The translations under genes were made by a program, and so were the position numbers. Source: a virus (lineage: Duplodnaviria; Heunggongvirae; Uroviricota; Caudoviricetes). From it: a DNA stretch of 19,395 nt. The stretch's first letter is position 1; every line of letters begins with the position of its first letter. The notes under the pieces were generated by a model that ran no database searches, was not told the origin of the DNA, and saw nothing but the letters and a program-made list of their open reading frames with translations. Where the stretch lies: the IMG/VR virus record IMGVR_UViG_2541047813_000002, one strand, 5' to 3'. Below, piece by piece: positions 1-18,180 of this stretch.

Positions 1-339
1 TTATAATTTGTTACTGTGCCACTCAAGGGCAATATCTTTGAAGGTGTTGTTTAACTGCGTTTCCCGGGCAATCTTTTCCTCTCGCTTCACTTCCATCAGA
101 TCGATTCCCCCAGAGATACCTCTTTTAGCTTCTTCAAGTTTTGCAGGAGCATCAGCTAAGGTGACCTCAGGATACACACCTAGTGCTAACAGCTTCTCTT
201 TACCAGCTACACGATACTTGAGACGCCAATATTCTCCTCCACCAGGTTTTACCAGGAGGTACAGACCACCACCATCAGCCAACTTGTAAGCCTTCTCTTT
301 TGGCTTGGCAGTGTCTATTTGACGGGCATTGAGTTTCAC
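1..339 (-). CDS. int: Tyrosine integrase (P4-type), N-terminal 112 codons only; the gene continues beyond the window start. Apparent GTG start at 339.
   Basis: ORF open to window edge. N-terminus (M)KLNARQIDTAKPKEKAYKLADGGGLYLLVKP...WRLKYR is about 92% identical to the N-terminus of the complete integrase at 18181-19395 and has the typical P4-like integrase arm-binding N-domain. In-frame TAG upstream excludes a longer ORF. Confidence 0.85.
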   Translation of the reverse strand: MKLNARQIDTAKPKEKAYKLADGGGLYLLVKPGGGEYWRLKYRVAGKEKLLALGVYPEVTLADAPAKLEEAKRGISGGIDLMEVKREEKIARETQLNNTFKDIALEWHSNKL

Positions 340-1902: not shown

Positions 1903-2925
1903 TCAATCGCTCCCTTTCCGCCCTTCAGCTACAGGGTCGTTGTCGGCGATAACAAAACCTAAGTCCTGAGAGAATCTCTCTCGTGGGAATCCTTTAGCAG
2001 GTAAACCCATTGAATCATATCCACATCCGGGAACATTTGGTTTAGAGTCAATAAGGTCTGCAATTTGCCGAAGCCATGTTGATCCCGGACCAAGTCGTTT
2101 AACTAAGTACCAGATAATACAGATCGCGCTAAAAATCCTCTCGCAACTCTCTGGATGGAGATTAAGTCCGTCAAAGTATTCATTATCCGGTACTGGAACT
2201 CGGGGATGCTTTCTATTCCATATTCTGGAATGGTGAGCGCAACGATTCCTTATGAGATTAAGGCACTTCAACCATTTTGCAAATGTCTGCTTATTATCAA
2301 TGCCAAAACGACGTATAATTTTCCCCTGCATATGACCATTAAGCATCGCATAATATTTAGACATCTGACCAAAATCCCATGTCTCCACCGCCACCCAAAA
2401 TGGAATCTCCTTGCCTTGGCTTCGATGCCATTCAATACAGTCATCTCTGCTTTCGTCTAATTTTACTTTTTGCTTATACACCCAATGCTCGAAGGCAGAT
2501 GAGAATTTTGGATTAATGTATTTTGATGACATGTAGGCAAGTGGATCATTGCGACCAACCTCATGCGCGATGACTGAACGAACATGAATCTCTATTCTTT
2601 CGATAGCATCAATCATCAAAAGACGCAGTTTTTTGTCAAAAAGATATAGATCGTACGTCTTCTCGAAACTGGTACCAGCAAGAAATCGGTCTGTTCTGTA
2701 CGAAAGACCTTTATCTGTTGTCGCAATAATTCTTGAAGGGTACCAAAAACCTGACAATCGATAATATCCAACCTGCGACAGCTTACGTATCGCACGATTT
2801 CGATCATTGATAATCATGCCACGTTCAAGTAGCAATCCTAGCAATTCGTGATAGTCCTTATGAGGCTTTGCGGCAATCATAGTGGCGAAACAAAAGATAA
2901 TAAAAGGCCCGACCGTGAAACTCAC
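1903..2925 (-). CDS. Abi_2 family (AbiD/AbiF-like) abortive-infection protein; true start possibly ATG at 2880
   Basis: KPHKDYHELLGLLLERGMIINDRNRAIRKLSQVGYYRLSGFWYP matches the conserved Abi_2 N-terminal signature (...YYRLSxYWYP). Lower-GC than the replication module. No convincing RBS at either candidate start. Confidence 0.8.
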   Translation of the reverse strand: MSFTVGPFIIFCFATMIAAKPHKDYHELLGLLLERGMIINDRNRAIRKLSQVGYYRLSGFWYPSRIIATTDKGLSYRTDRFLAGTSFEKTYDLYLFDKKLRLLMIDAIERIEIHVRSVIAHEVGRNDPLAYMSSKYINPKFSSAFEHWVYKQKVKLDESRDDCIEWHRSQGKEIPFWVAVETWDFGQMSKYYAMLNGHMQGKIIRRFGIDNKQTFAKWLKCLNLIRNRCAHHSRIWNRKHPRVPVPDNEYFDGLNLHPESCERIFSAICIIWYLVKRLGPGSTWLRQIADLIDSKPNVPGCGYDSMGLPAKGFPRERFSQDLGFVIADNDPVAEGRKGSD

Positions 2926-3682
2926 ATGCCTGAAATCGGCGGCGGAGAAACAGAGGATCGGGCTCGGTTGCCTGTAACTCTATCCGAAGTTATCCACATG
3001 TCAATGCACAGTTACTTAGGAAACTAACATAGATACTATCATCACTCACGAAAAACCACTATATGTGGTTTTTATTCATATCGTTATCCACTACAGGCTG
3101 TGTCAATAACTTTTACCTATTAATTGGGTAATTTCTACATTTTCCTATGCTGGCTAGTTTCTCTACTGAAAAGTTGGCACTCCTTAATCGCTTTTCGGTT
3201 AATACTATCGGTCTTCATATTGCCAGCAGCATACGCCATCCGATAATTTCTATGCTACGCGCGCGTACTTGTCGCAAAATATCAGGCAAAGGCCAGATTC
3301 AGAACGTCGTGATAACCACCAGCACAACATGAGATGTCATGTAACACGATTTATCACATCAGATACATGTGATTGGTGTACCCGCATAAAACATCGTCAT
3401 AGCGCGTCCTGTGCACATATACGCCGATAATCAACACATCACCACCACTCTGTCTCGTGTAGAGAACAGTTTCATGGTATCCCCCGCCATCGTGTGCGTA
3501 CTGGTCGGACGTAGTTGCAAAATTTTTGCAACTGATACCCCTCGCGCGCGTACTGGTCACGAAATTGGTGTTTTGCTGTGGCAGTGATATCAGAAAAATC
3601 TTCCTGTTTCACATAAAGCGGATATGCGCGTACTGTAACAGCCCCATCAACTGGGAGCGGATTTGAAATCCCGACCCAAGCT

Positions 3683-4102
3683 ATGTACCAAATGCCATGT
3701 CTTGGATATATGATGATTGCCATTCTAAACAAAGCTAAAGGGAGGGTTGGTGTGAATGCTCAGGCTGTCATCATGGTTTTCCTTGGTCTGATTGTCGCAA
3801 AACTATATCCAGACTGGTGGAAAGGGGCATTAGCAACTGTCGCCATCTATTTGCTTTTATCCGTCGTTAAGCGATCGTTCGTTAAGACCGTAAATCAAGC
3901 AAAACGTTTCTCATTTAAGAATTTAATAAACTATATTACTGGGCTTATTTTTTGCCTTTCACTTTTGATCGCTTCAGCTTTTTTGCCCGTATCAATAGCT
4001 AATTTTTTTGGCGCACCATATGAGGTAGGTTATCTATTCTCTGTTTTTTGTCTTGTTCTTTCCCTTCTTTACCTATGGATGAGAGCAAAGAACAAAAATT
4101 AG
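3683..4102 (+). CDS. Small polytopic membrane protein (about 116-139 aa); probable start GTG at 3752
   Basis: AAGGGAGGG sits 5 nt upstream of GTG 3752. Three to four hydrophobic helices (VIMVFLGLIVAKLY, ATVAIYLLLSVV, ITGLIFCLSLLIASAFL, LFSVFCLVLSLLYLW). AT-rich. Convergent with the 701-aa gene. Confidence 0.55.
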   Translation: MYQMPCLGYMMIAILNKAKGRVGVNAQAVIMVFLGLIVAKLYPDWWKGALATVAIYLLLSVVKRSFVKTVNQAKRFSFKNLINYITGLIFCLSLLIASAFLPVSIANFFGAPYEVGYLFSVFCLVLSLLYLWMRAKNKN

Positions 4103-4120: not shown

Positions 4121-6226
4121 TTATTGAGCTTCTTTTTGTGATGCCTGTGCGACTCTGGTGAGCGATTGTGTGACCGTACTGATCGCTCTGTCATATGCTG
4201 TGCTACCTTTTGGCGTATTTGCCAGACGTAACAAGGCATTTCGTATAACAGGGCTTTCGTATGCCTTCGCTGCTCCGCCTACGGCACCAGCAGCAGGAAC
4301 AACAAACGCAGCCGTTTTTAGCATCCCCGCTAATACTGCTGCGTTTATGATGCCACCACCAACTAACAATCCATAAAGCTGCTGACCATTTAAGTTTTGA
4401 ACGTTCGCTTTTGCCGCGTGTCTTGTATCGTTGAGGTATTTAATAACGCCGTCCAGTTCCTTTCCATGTACGCCTTTAAAGAAAGTTGCTGATTGCTTCC
4501 TGTTCCGGTGTAACGCATTAATAAACTTCTCAACACTGATATTTCCAGACGGATCAGTCGCCTTATCTACAGCATTCTGAACTATGGCTGCTCGTGCGTT
4601 TTGCCTACCATTGTCATCCAGAAGCCTGTAAAGCTGAGAACGTTCTGATGGGCTTTGGCTAAAAACGAGTTTTGTTACATCCTCAGGCGTGGCCTTGCCG
4701 CTGGCTATTGCCTTTTGAACGCGCGTTCTTCCCATCATGTCATTGAATTTAGACCATGAACGATCAACCCTTGCCATATTAATGGCTTCGTCTGCTCCAA
4801 GATTTTTGGCTACGGCTTTTTTCATATCCGCCGTATATGCCTTGTAGATAATATCGCTGGCTTTCTGGAGCGTATCTTTATCAACAGTGTCAGATGACGC
4901 CATAAATCGCTTTCGAAGATCGGTTCTGTTTTCCCTCGCCAGACGCAGGTCATTTGGTCCGCTGGTGATATCGTCTTTAAATTGCTGCAAGACTTTTACC
5001 GCGGCTCTATCCTGAGATTTGCCCGGGCGGCTTAACACGGCAATCTGATTGTCGATAGCTTTTACCGTGTTTGAGAGATCGACAGGGGTATCCCCCATAG
5101 CGTCAATTATGCGGTTATATCGCTTTCCTGCTGCCTCAATGAATTTTTGTTGCCCTTTAGTCGCAGATTCATAAAGCTGTTTATCAGAAATGCCACCCAG
5201 ACCATCGCTAAATGTTCTGACTAAATTTTCTCGTGCTTGTTGTTGATTCAGCCGATTCTTACCGGTTCCAAAAAAAGGAACTCTTTCGCCTAATGTCTGA
5301 GCCTGACTCTGCATAAAGGTTTTATCTTTCAGCATGTCACTGGTCATTAACGGCAGATTTCTTTCCGATGCAAAGTCGACAGCAGCCTTTGCTTCAGGCG
5401 ACATATCACCACGAACAGCCCTCGAAACCGCACTCGCTGTATTTTCCAGCCCCTTACCAATACCACCAATGCCAGCAGAAATTACCGTTTGTAACGGTTC
5501 AATATCTTCTCCACCAGCAAGGCTAGTGGCTCCCTGTAGTGCTAAATCTGTAGCTGCTGATTTTCCTATGGCACCAAGCACCGTTCCAGCCCTGCCAGCT
5601 GGTGTAAACGCCAACGCATTAGCAAGAAACGAAGTCAGGTCTTGCGGTGATAAACCCGGCTTGTTCAGGGCATAATCACCTGATGGCAGAGAAACGATAG
5701 TATTCCCCTTCTCATCCTGCCTTAATGTCGCCCCCATTCCCTGAAGAATCTTTTCCTGAGACGCGTCAGAGCCGAAAAGTTGAGACCATCCAGCCTTTAG
5801 GGCATCCATGCTTAGTGAGTTCAATTCTGGGGCAGAGGCGACATTTTGCAGTCTCTCCATCTCTGGAGTCATTCGGCTTTCGCCTGTTATAGCATCGCGC
5901 ATCGCAGCCCCAAGACTGGCTCCCTGTTCTGCTGAACGCTCAAGCCCCTCTCTTTGCTGAGTAGCTAACTTTGCATACCCTGACGCAAGAGAATTATCAG
6001 ATGATGTATGTTGAATATTTTGAGTTGCTGATTGGGATCGGTCTATTTCATTCGTTGATGGTAGTGGATAGGCAGCATAAAAAGCCTGCTTAGCCTGCTC
6101 TACACTTTCTCCGGCTTGCGGGGCAACGACTTCATTGAAGTATTGCTCCTGAGCCTGCGCTTTTTGTTCTGGTGCTAACGCCTGATACTGTGGAGAGGCG
6201 ATAACATCTTTCCATGCTTTAGCCAT
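4121..6226 (-). CDS. Large Q/A/G-rich protein (701 aa) with C-terminal glycine-zipper hydrophobic segment; phage ejection/DNA-transfer protein-like (P22 gp16-like by size and position)
   Basis: Long ORF; ATGA start/stop overlap with the upstream gene at 6226; C-terminal LLVGGGIINAAVLAGMLKTAAFVVPAAGAVGGAAKA. The family assignment is an inference, not a match. Confidence 0.85.
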   Translation of the reverse strand: MAKAWKDVIASPQYQALAPEQKAQAQEQYFNEVVAPQAGESVEQAKQAFYAAYPLPSTNEIDRSQSATQNIQHTSSDNSLASGYAKLATQQREGLERSAEQGASLGAAMRDAITGESRMTPEMERLQNVASAPELNSLSMDALKAGWSQLFGSDASQEKILQGMGATLRQDEKGNTIVSLPSGDYALNKPGLSPQDLTSFLANALAFTPAGRAGTVLGAIGKSAATDLALQGATSLAGGEDIEPLQTVISAGIGGIGKGLENTASAVSRAVRGDMSPEAKAAVDFASERNLPLMTSDMLKDKTFMQSQAQTLGERVPFFGTGKNRLNQQQARENLVRTFSDGLGGISDKQLYESATKGQQKFIEAAGKRYNRIIDAMGDTPVDLSNTVKAIDNQIAVLSRPGKSQDRAAVKVLQQFKDDITSGPNDLRLARENRTDLRKRFMASSDTVDKDTLQKASDIIYKAYTADMKKAVAKNLGADEAINMARVDRSWSKFNDMMGRTRVQKAIASGKATPEDVTKLVFSQSPSERSQLYRLLDDNGRQNARAAIVQNAVDKATDPSGNISVEKFINALHRNRKQSATFFKGVHGKELDGVIKYLNDTRHAAKANVQNLNGQQLYGLLVGGGIINAAVLAGMLKTAAFVVPAAGAVGGAAKAYESPVIRNALLRLANTPKGSTAYDRAISTVTQSLTRVAQASQKEAQ

Positions 6227-7359
6227 TAATCACCCCATAGTGAAGAAAAGTTACTGCTGGCTGCTGGCTGTGATACCTGCTCAGATTGCGGCAATGTCTG
6301 CGACGAAGAAGAAGTTCCTCTGTCAACTGCTGAAATAACCCGCAAAGCATCATAAGCTCGACCAGAAGCAGCTTTCAGCGAATTGAACTGGTTTTCCATC
6401 TTCCGGCGCTTGGTATCAATGGTTTTTGTGGAGTCGCCAGGCTGAGGGAAATACATTTGATAATATTTTGACATTTCAGCAGGTGCGATAGCTGCCCCTG
6501 TTTCCTGACGGAGTATTGCCATTATTGCGTCATTAGCATTAACAACGTATTGCTGCTCTGTTGGGCTGAGCGTTAAGTTAGCCAGCGTCCCATTACCCAA
6601 AGCATTATTAATGATCGCCACTCGCTGTGGGCTAAGCTGGTCTCTCAGTGTATCTATTGAATCAAGAGCATCCCTAACCCTGTATGCAAATCCAGCAGCT
6701 TTTTTAGCCCCTTCTGGCGACTTTTCCATGATCTTTTGGGCTGTTGGCAAAGCTATTGGACGAAACCCATCTCCAGATATTGGCTGGTTTAGTTTTCCCT
6801 GCTCTTCACTTCCGTCTGTGTAGTATTTTGTGACAGTGCCATCATCGTTTTCTCTAACACTCATTAATTTTTTGGCGTTTGTATTAATTCCAGCCGCTGC
6901 CGCAAATGCCGCCGCCCCCTCTGGATCCGCCTTTAACATTTGAGCGTACTGATTGTAATTCTGCATTGCTGCTGTTGGTGCATATGCTGACGTTAACGCA
7001 TTTGCTCGGCTAATATCCTGCCCTCTCGCCTGAAGTGCTTCGCCAGCCTGATTGCTGCGGATTGTTTCTGCCAACTTGCCACGCTCAATATCCCGACCTT
7101 CCATTTGATCTTTGATATCGAAATACTTCTCATGACCGAGAGAAAACAGTGCCATACTACCAGCAAGCCGCTGGAATCCCTGTGGATCATTAACATGCAT
7201 TTCGGCAACAGACTCAGGAGAAATTCCCAAGCGACGCATTTCATCTTCGTTATCTGCTATGAATTTTCCAAATGCCCCAGTTCCGAGCGAAGATGCGATT
7301 TGAGCACTAGTCGCAAGATGACCAATAGAATTTCTCTGGTCGTCATCAATAAAGCCCAT
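6226..7359 (-). CDS. C-terminal 377 codons of an apparently split ~470-aa gene (P22 gp20-like size)
   Basis: Reading frame stays open and protein-like upstream of the ATG back to a TGA at 7420-7422. No usable RBS before ATG 7359 (AAAGGG abuts the ATG). Confidence 0.75.
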   Translation of the reverse strand: MGFIDDDQRNSIGHLATSAQIASSLGTGAFGKFIADNEDEMRRLGISPESVAEMHVNDPQGFQRLAGSMALFSLGHEKYFDIKDQMEGRDIERGKLAETIRSNQAGEALQARGQDISRANALTSAYAPTAAMQNYNQYAQMLKADPEGAAAFAAAAGINTNAKKLMSVRENDDGTVTKYYTDGSEEQGKLNQPISGDGFRPIALPTAQKIMEKSPEGAKKAAGFAYRVRDALDSIDTLRDQLSPQRVAIINNALGNGTLANLTLSPTEQQYVVNANDAIMAILRQETGAAIAPAEMSKYYQMYFPQPGDSTKTIDTKRRKMENQFNSLKAASGRAYDALRVISAVDRGTSSSSQTLPQSEQVSQPAASSNFSSLWGD

Positions 7360-7634
7360 CCCTTTCTGAACGCTTTCAAATTCTTCTGGATACTCAGCAT
7401 TTTGTTTCTGTCTCCAGACTCAAAAGCCCCGGCATATGCTTTCTGAAACTCTGCTTTACGCTGTTGTTGACGTGCCTGCTGATTAATCTCAGCAACGCCT
7501 CTTAGCCCCTGTAGCGCCATTAAACCTACGTTTGGCTGCTGCTGATACTGCACAGGCTGAGGAACGGAAGAACGAGGAGCATTATCATTTTGCGGTGCCA
7601 TGCTAGGCAGCCCGCCAAGTTGCCATGTCGCCAT
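7257..7634 (-). CDS. N-terminal fragment of the same split gene; translationally coupled to the upstream 225-aa gene (TAATG); protein-like only for the first ~80 codons
   Basis: ATG 7634 overlaps the stop of the 225-aa gene. Sequence is Q-rich like its neighbours until about 7400, then becomes junk-like (ALLMTTREILLVILRLV) where the 377-codon frame takes over. Confidence 0.5.
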   Translation of the reverse strand: MATWQLGGLPSMAPQNDNAPRSSVPQPVQYQQQPNVGLMALQGLRGVAEINQQARQQQRKAEFQKAYAGAFESGDRNKMLSIQKNLKAFRKGWALLMTTREILLVILRLVLKSHLRSELGHLENS

Positions 7635-8311
7635 TAGAATCCAAGCCCCCCAACAAGACCAATAAGCCCACCACCAATAGCCCCGGCGACATTACCTATA
7701 CCCGGAACAACGGAACCAAGTTGCGCACCCGCTAAAGCGCCTGATGCCGCCCCACCAATACCACGCGCAAGACTGGATGGCTGCTGCGCCTGACCTGCAC
7801 GAATAGCGCCAAGCCCCTGCAAGAGTTGCCCGGTATTATTGGCGTAGTTTTGCCCTGCTGTTGCCTGCCCTGATGCCGCATTCATCCCGACATTTAGCAG
7901 GTTTCCATAATTTTGCATTTGCCCACTAAGCCAATTGTTATAAAGCATGGGCGCAATGGAAGATAACTGGTTACTGGTAGCTGTTGAGCCAAGCCCCCCG
8001 GTAGCTTCTGCTGAGACAAGGTTCTGATAACGGGCCTGATCTGCCTGTGTTTTATATAAACCAGAACCAAAGAAATCATTCGCGGCTTTATTCTGCCCTT
8101 CCAGAGTCATCAGTCCTTGTAGTTGTTGTAAAGCAGGCAATCCGACTTCTGCATACGGCTTGAGATTATTCATCACCGTATTCCACTGCTCGCGCTGCAA
8201 ATCAATTGCCTGCTGCTGGGCCTTCGCCTGAGCTTTAGAGGCACCACCATCACCGCCTTTTTCGTATACGGCACGATTGAGATGTTTATGAGCTATATGG
8301 GTAATTAACAT
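7634..8311 (-). CDS. Q/G-rich protein (225 aa) with C-terminal glycine-zipper; ejection-protein-like (P22 gp7-like size)
   Basis: ATG 8311 with AAGGAA upstream; overlaps the stop of the 153-aa gene. Contains EKGGDGGASKAQAKAQQQ and ends GIGNVAGAIGGGLIGLVGGLGF. Confidence 0.85.
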   Translation of the reverse strand: MLITHIAHKHLNRAVYEKGGDGGASKAQAKAQQQAIDLQREQWNTVMNNLKPYAEVGLPALQQLQGLMTLEGQNKAANDFFGSGLYKTQADQARYQNLVSAEATGGLGSTATSNQLSSIAPMLYNNWLSGQMQNYGNLLNVGMNAASGQATAGQNYANNTGQLLQGLGAIRAGQAQQPSSLARGIGGAASGALAGAQLGSVVPGIGNVAGAIGGGLIGLVGGLGF

Positions 8312-9342: not shown

Positions 9343-9392
9343 CACTCTCTGATGCCAGCCAGGTGTTGTGCGCATCAATTCAGTCACATTGT

Positions 9393-9504
9393 GTTGGTTC
9401 AAAATACCGTGTTGTTGGTTCAGTGTTGGTTCAATAAAAAGAATAAAATCCTTATAAAACAACACTCTTTACAAATTGAACCAACTGAACCAACTGAACC
9501 AACG
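9393..9504. repeat. Iteron module B (putative ori): GTTGGTTCA at 9393, 9414, 9425; AT-rich spacer; three contiguous TGAACCAAC at 9478-9504
   Basis: Read directly; lies between the primase stop (9529) and the terminator; reverse complement of module A. Confidence 0.75.
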
Positions 9505-14466: not shown

Positions 14467-15315
14467 GTGCCACCTCCATGCGGATACGACCAGCAAAAAA
14501 GCAGACGTGATCGCGCACCAGAGAACGGCGAGCATCGCGTTCAGACTCGGCAGCAATATGATGAATTTTGGCGGTAATTGTCGGGCAATCGCGGCGAACT
14601 GCGGCGATAATCCAGATAAATTGCGTTTTTTGGGTAGGGGTAGTAGCCAGCATGTGGCAGCCTCCTTGTACTGGGAATTCTTCCCACCACCGGAGCTGCG
14701 AAACTCGCTGGTGGTGGACTGAACAGAGTTCGCAGTACCGGCGTACAAGGAAACCGGCCAGCCTTTCGGCTGCCCTGTCCAGCCCACCATAATTTTGCAA
14801 GCGACGCGGATTATAACCACATCACTGAAAAAAGTGTGAGTCTGGCTAACGGCACAAAAAAAGACGCTCGGCGCGTCATGTGTCGCCTCGTACATTTCCG
14901 GGCTGCGAAACCCGGCACCCGTTTTATGAGGTGCCTTATAACCATAAACCGTGTTGCCGCATAACGGCAAGCTCTTTTTTATGGACTCCGAAAACTCACT
15001 ATTGGAAGAACCAGAAGCACAGTACATCGTGCTCATTTCGTTAACGTCACGCGCGTGGACGAATGTTTTTGTGGAGTCACTACACGAGCGGAAGACATCA
15101 TCTACGACCAGAAATTTTCTGGCGCAGCCGCTGACCTTCTCAATGCTAATATCATCGCCCGAGATTTCTGGTATGGTTAAGGCATCCGTTCCGACCACCA
15201 GCAAATGATAAACTTTGCTTGTATCTGCTGTATTAATGCCTGACTTTGCCGTCATATTGCTGGATTTTGGCGACATGCCAGCCAGTGAAAATGTCTTCTT
15301 CTGGACGGTTAGCAT
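14248..15315 (-). CDS. Long ORF (355 codons) anchored by a well-supported start at 15315; the 3' extent is doubtful and it may be chimeric. The N-terminal ~150 codons are protein-like.
   Basis: GGAGGTT sits 6 nt upstream of ATG 15315, which overlaps the upstream stop (ATGCTAA). The distal half is W/P/C-rich and overlaps two RBS-supported small ORFs. Confidence 0.4.
14459..14653 (-). CDS. Possible small protein (64 aa; [11 protein letters not shown]...), or part of a structured non-coding region
   Basis: AAGGAGG sits 7 nt upstream of ATG 14653; stop coupled to the next start. The region also has open frames on several other strands and frames and nested inverted repeats. Confidence 0.35.
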   Translation of the reverse strand: MLATTPTQKTQFIWIIAAVRRDCPTITAKIHHIAAESERDARRSLVRDHVCFFAGRIRMEVAHD

Positions 15316-15491: not shown

Positions 15492-16317
15492 TGACCACCT
15501 CCAGACGCTTGGCGAGCCAGCGTTGCGACAGGCGGGTGAGTTCTCCTTTACGCTGCTCATATTCCATGCCCATATCAATTAACGTGATATTGGTGCTTTC
15601 GAGATATGAGAGGTGCTCAAGCTGTTCTGCGTTCATATGGTCGCGAGGTTCGCCAGAATAGCCATTTATCCGCGCCCACTGCTTAGCAGTTAGCCCACCA
15701 AGAACGATACGAGAAATCATATTGCTCTCGTTTGTGTAGTGGTGTTGCTGCGTCGTTTTCCCCTGCTCGGCACGGGCCATATTCAGCGCATCGCACATTG
15801 GCTTAAAGTTGTTTGCGGCACTGATACGGGCTTTTAGCTGGCGACGATAGCGGGCGGCGATTTCAGGCACGCTACGCTGTAATTCTTCCTCGCACTGGAT
15901 GAAATAACGGCGGATAGCGCGACCCTGATCATTGCGTTCGATCATTGCCAGTTCTTTCGCCATTCCGACACTTAACAGATAGTCTTTGCCGGGTCTGCCA
16001 GACTGCTTAATCTTGCTGTAAGCCGCGCCATTCGGGCTTTTCCCCAAATTTGGGGAAATTGTTTTATGGACTGAGTAATCGTGCCCAATGGTGAAGTCAT
16101 ATTCAGAGATGCGATCAGTGATCCATGTAGAGAAGTCTTTTCCCACGCCCAACGCTTTGTGTAACGCTTTTGCGCTAACAATATTGGTTTCACGCCCACC
16201 GATATGACCAGGAATAACCGGGACAATTGCGGCAAATTCATTACCGTTAATTGTGCCCAGAGAGGCGTTCAGATGAGGGGCAGCCTCAGAAATTAATCTG
16301 CTTTTTTCGATGTTCAT
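15484..16317 (-). CDS. Phage antirepressor-family protein (Rha-like N-terminal domain plus KilA-C/ANT-like C-terminal domain), 277 aa
   Basis: GGAGA RBS; motifs DYLLSVGMAKELAMIERNDQGRAIRRYFIQCEEEL and an N-terminal Rha-like segment. Confidence 0.85.
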   Translation of the reverse strand: MNIEKSRLISEAAPHLNASLGTINGNEFAAIVPVIPGHIGGRETNIVSAKALHKALGVGKDFSTWITDRISEYDFTIGHDYSVHKTISPNLGKSPNGAAYSKIKQSGRPGKDYLLSVGMAKELAMIERNDQGRAIRRYFIQCEEELQRSVPEIAARYRRQLKARISAANNFKPMCDALNMARAEQGKTTQQHHYTNESNMISRIVLGGLTAKQWARINGYSGEPRDHMNAEQLEHLSYLESTNITLIDMGMEYEQRKGELTRLSQRWLAKRLEVVNV

Positions 16318-18037: not shown

Positions 18038-18180
18038 ACGCCACCCCGCGCCCCCTAATTCTGACGGCTATGCCAGCCCGTAGGGGTGTACGGGTTTTCG
18101 GGGATCAGCCTAGACATAGCCTATTCTTTGTTCGTCTACATAAGTCTACTACCATTGCTTAACACTGTCTATTCATACAG

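Follow-up and report, generated by a model that had tools for sequence, protein, structure and literature searches.

The DNA that separates an abortive-infection (Abi) gene from a small membrane-protein gene in a phage-inducible chromosomal island (PICI) of Escherichia coli is probably a mosaic of three modules, which together form the intergenic backbone of a defence hotspot in islands of the EcCIMP1 type. This non-coding stretch lies at positions 2881-3751 of the window, that is, of the whole 19,395-nucleotide (nt) stretch of DNA analysed here (IMG/VR virus record IMGVR_UViG_2541047813_000002). Its modules are an Abi cassette (module A), a scrap of a small-terminase gene, terS (module B), and a conserved spacer (module C). 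EcCIMP1 itself was described in E. coli as a PICI that the P22-like phage Kapi1 mobilises (Pick, Stadel and Raivio, ISME J 2025; PMC11773190).

Within the stretch, the covarying leader RNA of the Abi gene is the one well-supported functional part, and the repeats and palindromes of module C are most plausibly debris, in a satellite cargo hotspot, on which recombination acts. The initial annotation had drawn attention to these repeats and palindromes, and had suggested that the region might be a regulatory hub for the flanking genes or encode a small RNA. The regulatory part of this idea survives in so far as a predicted Abi promoter, a covarying leader and the translation start of the membrane-protein gene are found here, but the features that had been flagged are not conserved regulatory sites.

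The intergenic backbone and its two cargo slots

The features that delimit the modules and the second of the two cargo slots are the following; those of the first slot are given with the Abi cassette.

3203-3246, minus strand: 5'-end fragment of an ES18-like (Terminase_2) small-terminase gene, frameshifted (YRMAYAAGNMK)
3249-3751, no strand assigned: conserved spacer between cargo slots 1 and 2, present in 545 of 5426 complete E. coli genomes
3738-3754, plus strand: ribosome-binding site (RBS) AAGGGAGGG with GTG 3752, the shared translation start of slot 2
3752-4102, plus strand: cargo slot 2, here a gene for a membrane protein of 116 amino acids (aa), in the position that sieA takes after gene 16 in P22
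4097-4118, minus strand: hairpin terminator between the convergent slot 2 gene and the gp16-like injection gene

To judge from its homologues, in which this start is kept while the sequence upstream of it varies in length, the Abi gene begins at ATG 2880 and not at GTG 2925. The membrane-protein gene most likely begins at GTG 3752, behind its RBS. With both start codons corrected, the non-coding stretch is therefore 2881-3751; the interval 2926-3682, first described as non-coding, is indeed free of genes, but its limits had been set too narrowly. No conserved open reading frame (ORF) was found within the stretch, in keeping with the earlier remark that only short ORFs occur there. The proteins recorded in databases for this locus are predicted ORFs of 51-127 aa whose ends vary, and therefore represent no conserved gene. 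A hidden protein gene was rejected since the database search returned only these same-locus ORFs of shifting length. A primase pseudogene was likewise discarded, as the Morganella match that suggested it falls in a primase gene and the window's own primase is unlike the region. Neither tandem repeats (TRF) nor tRNA genes were found in the region. A remnant of a DUF4222 gene was also considered and set aside, because the protein concerned (P0025) is the product of a deletion by which the island's own DUF4222 gene became joined to the spacer. In the two loci with this deletion (L016 and L017), the junction lies at ...GYPLYVKQEDF, and about 11.6 kb of the island has been taken out, primase and virion genes included.

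The mosaic structure emerges from a comparison across genomes. A 1-kb query spanning the region was searched against 5426 complete E. coli genomes and matched 545 of them, only 105 over most of its length; counted by location, the spacer matches at 579 places in these genomes. On the left, homology breaks off at 2959, 3188, 3193, 3213 or 3249; on the right, it ends at about 3755-3757 or 3666-3677 and resumes at 4101. On its left side, the shared block is bordered by an Abi gene, an ImmA-type pair or small ORFs, depending on the island, while at least four unrelated ORFs are found to its right, all of them starting at the same RBS and GTG. As genes vary on both sides of the shared block, the region separates two cargo slots, and cargo varies between conserved flanks across copies, as it does in a PICI hotspot. 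The defence hotspots of phage satellites (P4-like satellites and PICIs) have the same conserved flanks, swappable anti-phage cargo and location near one end of the element. The arrangement differs from them in having two neighbouring slots with a conserved 0.5-kb non-coding spacer in between, and in that unrelated ORFs of the second slot have one RBS and start codon in common.

At slot 2, homology between islands ends 1-5 nt past GTG 3752 and is taken up again at 4101. The 116-aa protein encoded there in the window has no detectable similarity to P22 SieA. One other island (L007), which has the same Abi cassette and a spacer 99% identical to that of the window, carries in slot 2 (L007:3793-4407) a 204-aa SieA homologue with 29% identity to P22 SieA (E 8e-8) and the RYPGEA motif. 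The locus resembles the gene 16-sieA arrangement of P22, where the last ejection gene faces a convergent gene for a small exclusion protein of the inner membrane (PMC10461980), and one island allele is a true SieA homologue. It differs in that the window's allele is unlike P22 SieA and that its upstream DNA is without significant P22 similarity, giving no P22 match at E up to 0.01 in the phage collection and a noise-level result in a scan of the whole P22 genome. The SieA homologue of L007 could bear on the superinfection immunity that has been reported for EcCIMP1.

Module B is, by its sequence, a dead scrap of a small-terminase gene. It is identical to ES18 gene 1 at 39 of 46 nt (database E 2e-3), all ten of its matches (10/10) fall in terS genes, and the match is in frame except for a 2-nt gap; it is also the sole phage match of the whole region. 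Longer terS remnants are present in three metagenomic or viral copies (L065, L072 and L098), and many islands lack the module, for example those in which the left breakpoint is 3249. The idea of repeated Terminase_2 N-termini on the minus strand was dismissed, given that no Pfam match was obtained at E 10 and that only the 3203-3246 piece has database support.

The Abi cassette and its leader RNA

Module A, from 2881 to about 3187, is a block that travels with the AbiD/F (Abi_2) gene, which it also accompanies in Raoultella, where it is 69% identical. Its parts are:

1903-2880, minus strand: AbiD/F-type (Abi_2) abortive-infection gene, cargo slot 1, with ATG at 2880 (MIAAKPHK...)
2891-2972, minus strand: structured leader RNA of the Abi gene, a hairpin of about 80 nt with a U-tract
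2977-3004, minus strand: sigma-70-like promoter of leader and gene, with a -35 TTGACA (3004-2999), a 16-nt spacer and a -10 TAGAGT (2982-2977)
3005-3126, minus strand: upstream block of the cassette, with sequence kept among diverged cassettes (ATTGATAGGTAAAA, CTGTAGGG, ACTACATATAGTG)
3051-3073, inside the upstream block: A/T-rich hairpin AAAAACCAC-TATAT-GTGGTTTTT

The Abi protein matches Pfam Abi_2 at 2.3e-52 and PADLOC AbiD at 7e-58, and the HEPN motif (R-x4-H) is present in its translation as RNRCAH. Its predicted promoter scores 10 of 12 matches in the promoter scan. The DNA upstream of Abi homologues with 50-100% aa identity was aligned (n=12 for the hairpin), and in this alignment the TTGAC of the -35 box is invariant (TTGACA in all but two) and the TAnAnT of the -10 box is kept in all.

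The leader consists of a basal stem (GCCCGAUC/GGUCGGGC), a variable apical helix and then CCUUUUAUUAUCU, about 20 nt ahead of the ATG. The hairpin is kept beside all 12 Abi homologues. RNAalifold gives a consensus of 18 pairs, with 91% of cells paired as opposed to 31-48% in controls with the partners slid, and a covariation score of 0.284 as opposed to at most 0.127. In the basal stem, one A-U pair is exchanged for G-C, while in the apical helix all five pairs are altered on both sides. The fold of the single sequence is the same as the consensus structure. A covariance model built from the alignment finds matches only beside these Abi genes, barring a weak one in the Kapi1 genome (L015), located at 15725-15798 directly after the tRNA-Thr gene (26 bits, E 6e-4).

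Cis-encoded RNAs upstream of the toxin are established for the AbiF family: in RCd22 of Clostridioides difficile, a terminator precedes abiF and the RNA acts as an antitoxin in cis and in trans; AbiFr has been found bound to PbAbiF; and the leader (5' untranslated region, UTR) of abiD1 from Lactococcus lactis is structured (PMC12373285, PMC12737573). The window's leader resembles these systems (AbiFr, RCd22, abiD1 and the abiF motif, RF03085) in that an Abi_2/HEPN gene is preceded, on the same strand and behind the same promoter, by a short structured RNA ending in a hairpin and U-tract just ahead of the ORF. It is different in being one long hairpin rather than two motifs of 33-37 nt and in residing on an enterobacterial PICI, and binding as an antitoxin is in this case only predicted. 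On this basis, the leader is proposed to be an AbiF-type cis RNA, acting as attenuator, antitoxin or both. The sigma-70-type promoter at 3004-2977 would drive transcription of the hairpin and U-tract (2972-2891) and then of the abi ORF. On the model of AbiF/AbiFr, RCd22 and lactococcal abiD1, transcription would in most cases end at the hairpin, which would keep the HEPN toxin low, and the short leader RNA may also bind and neutralise the Abi protein.

Several points weigh against this proposal. The leader has no match in Rfam, RF03085 included, at E up to 10 on either strand, and is therefore classed as working like an AbiF RNA and not as a member of that family. It is a single hairpin and not a repeat. 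The terminator scan did not call the hairpin, because its loop is complex, although CCUUUUAUUAUCU follows the stem. Finally, while the structure and its conservation come directly from the alignment, the promoters, termination at the hairpin and any contact between RNA and protein, including antitoxin activity, are predictions.

The upstream block at 3005-3126 has no consensus structure in the alignment and gives a sub-threshold Rfam match to RF01742 (lactis-plasmid RNA; 18 bits). The A/T-rich hairpin inside it recurs in loci of other genera, also on the opposite strand. The RNA evidence at 2891-2972 thus lies outside every feature that had been flagged and partly outside the interval first described, the flagged features all belonging to module C.

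The spacer, its motifs and its palindromes

The repeats and palindromes of module C are, in order of position:

3256-3280, minus strand: motif copy 1, ATTTTGCGACAAGTACGCGCGCG in the minus sense (profile E 3.7e-5)
3328-3372, no strand assigned: two short inverted repeats, at 3328-3343 and 3352-3372
3479-3513, minus strand: motif copy 2, degenerate, GCATACT in about a quarter of unique copies (profile E 0.064)
3513-3533, no strand assigned: 21-bp palindrome AGTTGCAAAA-T-TTTTGCAACT, between motif copies 3 and 2
3537-3565, minus strand: motif copy 3, the best preserved, AATTTCGTGACCAGTACGCGCGCGAGGGG (profile E 1.2e-7)
3625-3650, minus strand: motif copy 4, degenerate, TTGATGGGGCTGTTACAGTACGCGC (profile E 0.18)

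The four copies of GCGTACT[GT] that had been reported are present on the plus strand at 3263, 3496, 3548 and 3628, well above the roughly 0.09 copies expected in 757 nt; over the whole window there are 7 matches against 0.72 expected, a number that none of 200 shuffles reaches. As had also been noted, two of them (copies 1 and 3) lie within CGCGCGCG tracts, with the 20-mer GCGCGTACTKGTCNCRAAAT in common (2 matches, 0.01 expected). The heptamer belongs to a longer motif of about 35 nt, which reads on the minus strand CTTTGATGATTTAG-NN-ACCAGTACGCGC-(GC-rich)-GAGG and lacks a consensus RNA structure.

Forty related loci in other Enterobacterales, found via a conserved 146-aa neighbour (1433-1873), indicate where this motif may come from. 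Spacer sequence recurs there on the same strand at the motif positions only. A profile built without E. coli sequences ranks the window's four copies first to fourth across 19.4 kb, and copy 3 is identical at 26 of 27 nt to Providencia L054. In all 13 of the loci that have a gene for a ribbon-helix-helix (RHH) protein of 63-75 aa, the motif adjoins this gene, either directly before its RBS or directly after its stop codon, and gene and motif stand at the end of the virion-gene operon, whether P22-like or siphovirus-like. No RHH gene was found in E. coli-type islands; a supposed remnant was rejected, being a match of only 16 aa (E 0.09) that overlaps the Abi promoter and has no counterpart in E. 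coli-type loci. Because the motif accompanies the RHH gene in other genera and the gene is missing in E. coli, it is concluded from these comparisons that the four repeats would be decayed copies of the flanking sequence of an RHH gene lost in E. coli, copy 3 being the apparent fossil of its leader and RBS.

Short repeats upstream of an Abi-type toxin gene also recall the arrays of type III toxin-antitoxin systems (ToxI and similar). Those, however, consist of units of 34-50 nt that follow one another in tandem immediately before the toxin, whereas the GCGTACT repeats are neither tandem nor evenly spaced (233, 52 and 80 nt). Their distance from the Abi start is 340-700 nt, they are not carried along with the Abi cassette, and islands without an Abi gene have them too.

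The palindromes are present as described, with some qualification. The 21-bp palindrome is perfect, with 10-bp arms around one base (P ~0.006 in dinucleotide shuffles of the region). The repeat ATCACAT-N7-ATGTGAT (3352-3372) is found in the window, and the inverted repeat ACATGAGATGTCATGT (3328-3343) also exists but amounts to just 6-bp arms around a 4-nt centre. The density of palindromes is real in that 10 short hairpins occur in the region against 1.8 in shuffles, yet a few other parts of the window score equally high. Conservation across related loci is not observed: the palindromes have no counterpart in the related elements found in other genera. Variation within E. coli was judged over 42 unique spacer copies. 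In most of them, ATCACAT-N7-ATGTGAT has an arm mismatch. The 21-bp palindrome is lost in three (L012 and two others) with a 53-nt deletion in which motif copies 2 and 3 recombined. The palindromes are thus best read as lineage-specific, often imperfect and sometimes deleted sequences lying in the debris between motif copies; on the basis of a weak alignment, that at 3513-3533 may lie roughly where the lost RHH gene would have begun.

The spacer as a whole looks like a nearly neutrally evolving sequence. Nearly all its E. coli copies are 90-99% identical while their flanks vary, and they differ from the window by about 3-4%; for the hypothetical neighbour gene (1433-1873), the figure at third codon positions is 4-6%. 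Many islands combine an injection gene of 99.7% identity with a spacer of 96.8%, and indels of 8 and 53 nt occur among spacer copies. A phage origin of the spacer was set aside, as no near match to it was found in 50,697 phage records. The spacer may persist since it separates the two cargo slots, offers homology for cargo exchange by recombination and supplies the RBS and GTG, presumably also the promoter, for the gene in the sieA position; the motif copies would act as deletion substrates.

Other observations sit less easily with a spacer made of debris. Even at its maximum, spacer divergence amounts to about 5%, far under the 16% (third positions) seen between the deeply split alleles of the injection gene. 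No convincing sigma-70 promoter for slot 2 was found near 3660-3745 in the scan, and the only match on the plus strand, at 3220-3247, falls in a block missing from many copies. The motif has a core, CAGTACGCGC, that does not vary between genera, which implies a function, so that the E. coli copies may not be mere fossils. Likewise, in most of the 42 unique copies the 10-bp arms of the 21-bp palindrome are intact and only its A/T centre varies, a pattern that would also fit a binding site.

The last two points are the basis of an alternative that we consider rather unlikely. It holds that palindromes and motif copies are live operators for the Abi and slot 2 genes, bound by an island regulator (PerC or the 146-aa protein, the N-terminus of which looks RHH-like by eye) or by a helper-phage protein. 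A DNA site bound by a protein would be expected to have, like the motif, an invariant core without RNA structure. The cargo genes on either side of the region are divergently oriented, and the TTGATGATTT units of Providencia coincide with -35 and -10-like hexamers. Set against this are the absence of the palindrome outside E. coli-type islands and its deletion in some of them, the imperfect repeat at 3352-3372, the irregular motif spacing, the half of the 40 related loci that have the 146-aa gene but no motif, and the near-neutral overall divergence; moreover, the Abi promoter and leader move as part of the Abi cassette and not of the spacer.

There is also a slight chance that the spacer is transcribed, giving slot 2 a long 5' UTR or yielding a small RNA from one strand or the other. 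The conserved block ends exactly at the slot 2 start codon, and the promoter-like sequence TTGCCA-16-GATAAT at 3220-3247 lies just left of the spacer, the scan having given none nearer. This promoter, however, is in the block absent from a large share of copies. In addition, the spacer folds no better than shuffles on either strand (z -0.4 and -0.7), has no Rfam family at the gathering threshold (Rfam 15) and no intrinsic terminator in the scan, and its near-neutral divergence and its indels also speak against an RNA; the earlier suggestion of a small RNA is accordingly not borne out for the spacer.

It is highly improbable that the repeats are replication-origin iterons for the island's primase-helicase. 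Four direct motif copies do occur within 400 bp, next to A/T-rich palindromes, but they are 5.5 kb from the primase and track the RHH gene. They are also unlike the iterons of the textbook iteron/AT-rich origin directly 3' of the primase gene at 9391-9503, on account of which an origin in the spacer was rejected.

The remaining alternative, which appears improbable, interprets the motif array as the island's packaging signal for headful packaging, with a helper small terminase (Sf6-type, Kapi1) binding repeats that mimic the helper's terS DNA. In an extended version, to be regarded with much doubt, the motif of about 35 nt would be a site for capture by the helper small terminase, and the four copies plus the ES18-like terS scrap a landing pad for multiple helpers; that the motif mimics DNA at the DNA-binding-domain boundary of Sf6/Kapi1-type terS genes, as this version requires, is equally doubtful. 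What makes packaging attractive is that EcCIMP1 has no terminase gene and that the mechanism of its packaging is unknown (PMC11773190). Motif copy 1 agrees with codons 57-62 of Kapi1 terS at 17 of 18 nt, the best blastn match of the region in the Kapi1 genome, but the blastn E-values against Kapi1 are 0.1-0.26, and the gapped alignment of spacer and Kapi1 is not above shuffles (35 of 60 score at least equal). With the profile from other genera, the best match among Kapi1, P22 and 3 kb of ES18 is the same terS site on the coding strand (E 0.005). Furthermore, the ES18-like terS fragment adjoins motif copy 1, and the motif stands at the end of the virion-gene operon in every genus. Opposed to this, no phage of the collection contains the motif region at E up to 10, most of the copies in E. 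coli are degenerate, and the motif tracks the RHH gene in 13 of 13 loci. The motif is also common to islands with P22-like and siphovirus-like virion modules, whereas specificity for the type of helper would be expected of a pac site. Mimicry of the P22 pac site was rejected: pac GAAGATTTATCTGAAGTCGTTA matches 3582-3603 (minus strand) at 16 of 22 positions, in frame with a weak gp3 similarity, which is at noise level in a scan of the whole P22 genome (E 0.84).

The pac site of Sf6 reportedly lies inside the terS DNA that encodes the DNA-binding domain. Among Sf6/Kapi1-type terS genes (L119/L183), two allele classes can be distinguished, strongly diverged through codon 60 and near-identical from codon 61 (FR|DKYAKA). 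This break suggests that a DNA-binding-domain module may have been exchanged at codon 60/61, the same site that resembles the island motif. If true, capture by a small terminase would answer how EcCIMP1 is packaged.

The host island and the meaning of the region

Beyond a mosaic backbone with two cargo slots, which remains the preferred reading of the stretch, the window contains further features that identify the element:

1-339, minus strand: N-terminus of a second integrase, at the left window edge
9391-9503: likely replication origin, three GTGTTGGTTCAA and three inverted ACCAACTGAACCAAC repeats flanking an AT-rich spacer, directly 3' of the TOPRIM/DUF927 primase gene
14707-14934 and 18053-18120, minus strand: C4 antisense RNA, IsrK and int-alpA RNA (Rfam matches)

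The window is E. coli DNA, and a twin locus 99.9% identical to it sits beside tRNA-Thr and proA. That locus is annotated with a tyrosine integrase at tRNA-Thr, an antirepressor, an Ash-family protein, a TOPRIM/DUF927 primase, PerC and an Abi protein. The virion genes of the island are limited to four homologues of P22-like proteins (gp14, gp7, gp20 and gp16), without capsid or terminase genes. The features of a PICI are thus present, namely an integrase at a tRNA, AlpA-type control (int-alpA RNA), a primase with adjoining origin-like iterons and the lack of capsid and terminase genes. The set of C4, IsrK and int-alpA indicates an immI-like antirepressor control module of the P1/P7 type inside the island.

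As gene set and integration site agree with those published for EcCIMP1, the window is an EcCIMP1-type PICI at tRNA-Thr. Both islands occupy the proA side of this tRNA gene, and their common gene set includes the integrase, the AlpA-type region, the antirepressor, Ash, the primase, DUF2824 and DNA-transfer proteins and PerC. They differ in that PADLOC and DefenseFinder gave no recognised defence system in EcCIMP1, while the window's copy has the AbiD/F cassette. Helper-dependent induction and transfer have been demonstrated for EcCIMP1 itself and not for the window's copy, and no mention of the intergenic region was found in the searched parts of the paper (PMC11773190).

The far end of the island is near 476-490, with GATAATAGGA from the tRNA-Thr 3' end at 480-489. 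Within 1-490 there is also an att-arm-like stretch that shares 86% identity with the end of this island type that is proximal to the integrase; together with the second integrase, it points to tandem islands at thrW. An att site within the non-coding stretch was considered and rejected, the tRNA-Thr repeat lying near 476-490 instead. Compared with strain EcPNK004, the gp20-like ejection gene (6226-7647, minus strand) has a 13-nt deletion at about 7397, which splits it into ORFs 6226-7359 and 7257-7634; with this gene frameshifted, the window's island copy may be defective. In the near-identical island of EcPNK004 (L001:15105-17356), it is the Abi gene that is broken, by the IS21-family element ISEc10, beyond which lies a dnd/dpt phosphorothioation island.

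For the biology of these islands, the analysis means that a block of 0.5 kb goes unannotated in about a tenth of the complete E. coli genomes (545 of 5426), where gene callers at times fill it with spurious ORFs, and that the start codons of two cargo genes are corrected (ATG 2880 and GTG 3752). It also defines a short motif, conserved across many genera of Enterobacterales at the end of the satellite virion-gene operon, as a candidate regulatory or packaging site. Finally, the Abi leader RNA is proposed to extend the AbiF cis-RNA theme with a form missed by current Rfam models. The arrangement of an AbiF toxin with a cis RNA, which is a proposed ancestor of Cas13, would thereby be extended to the enterobacterial AbiD/F subfamily on a phage satellite.

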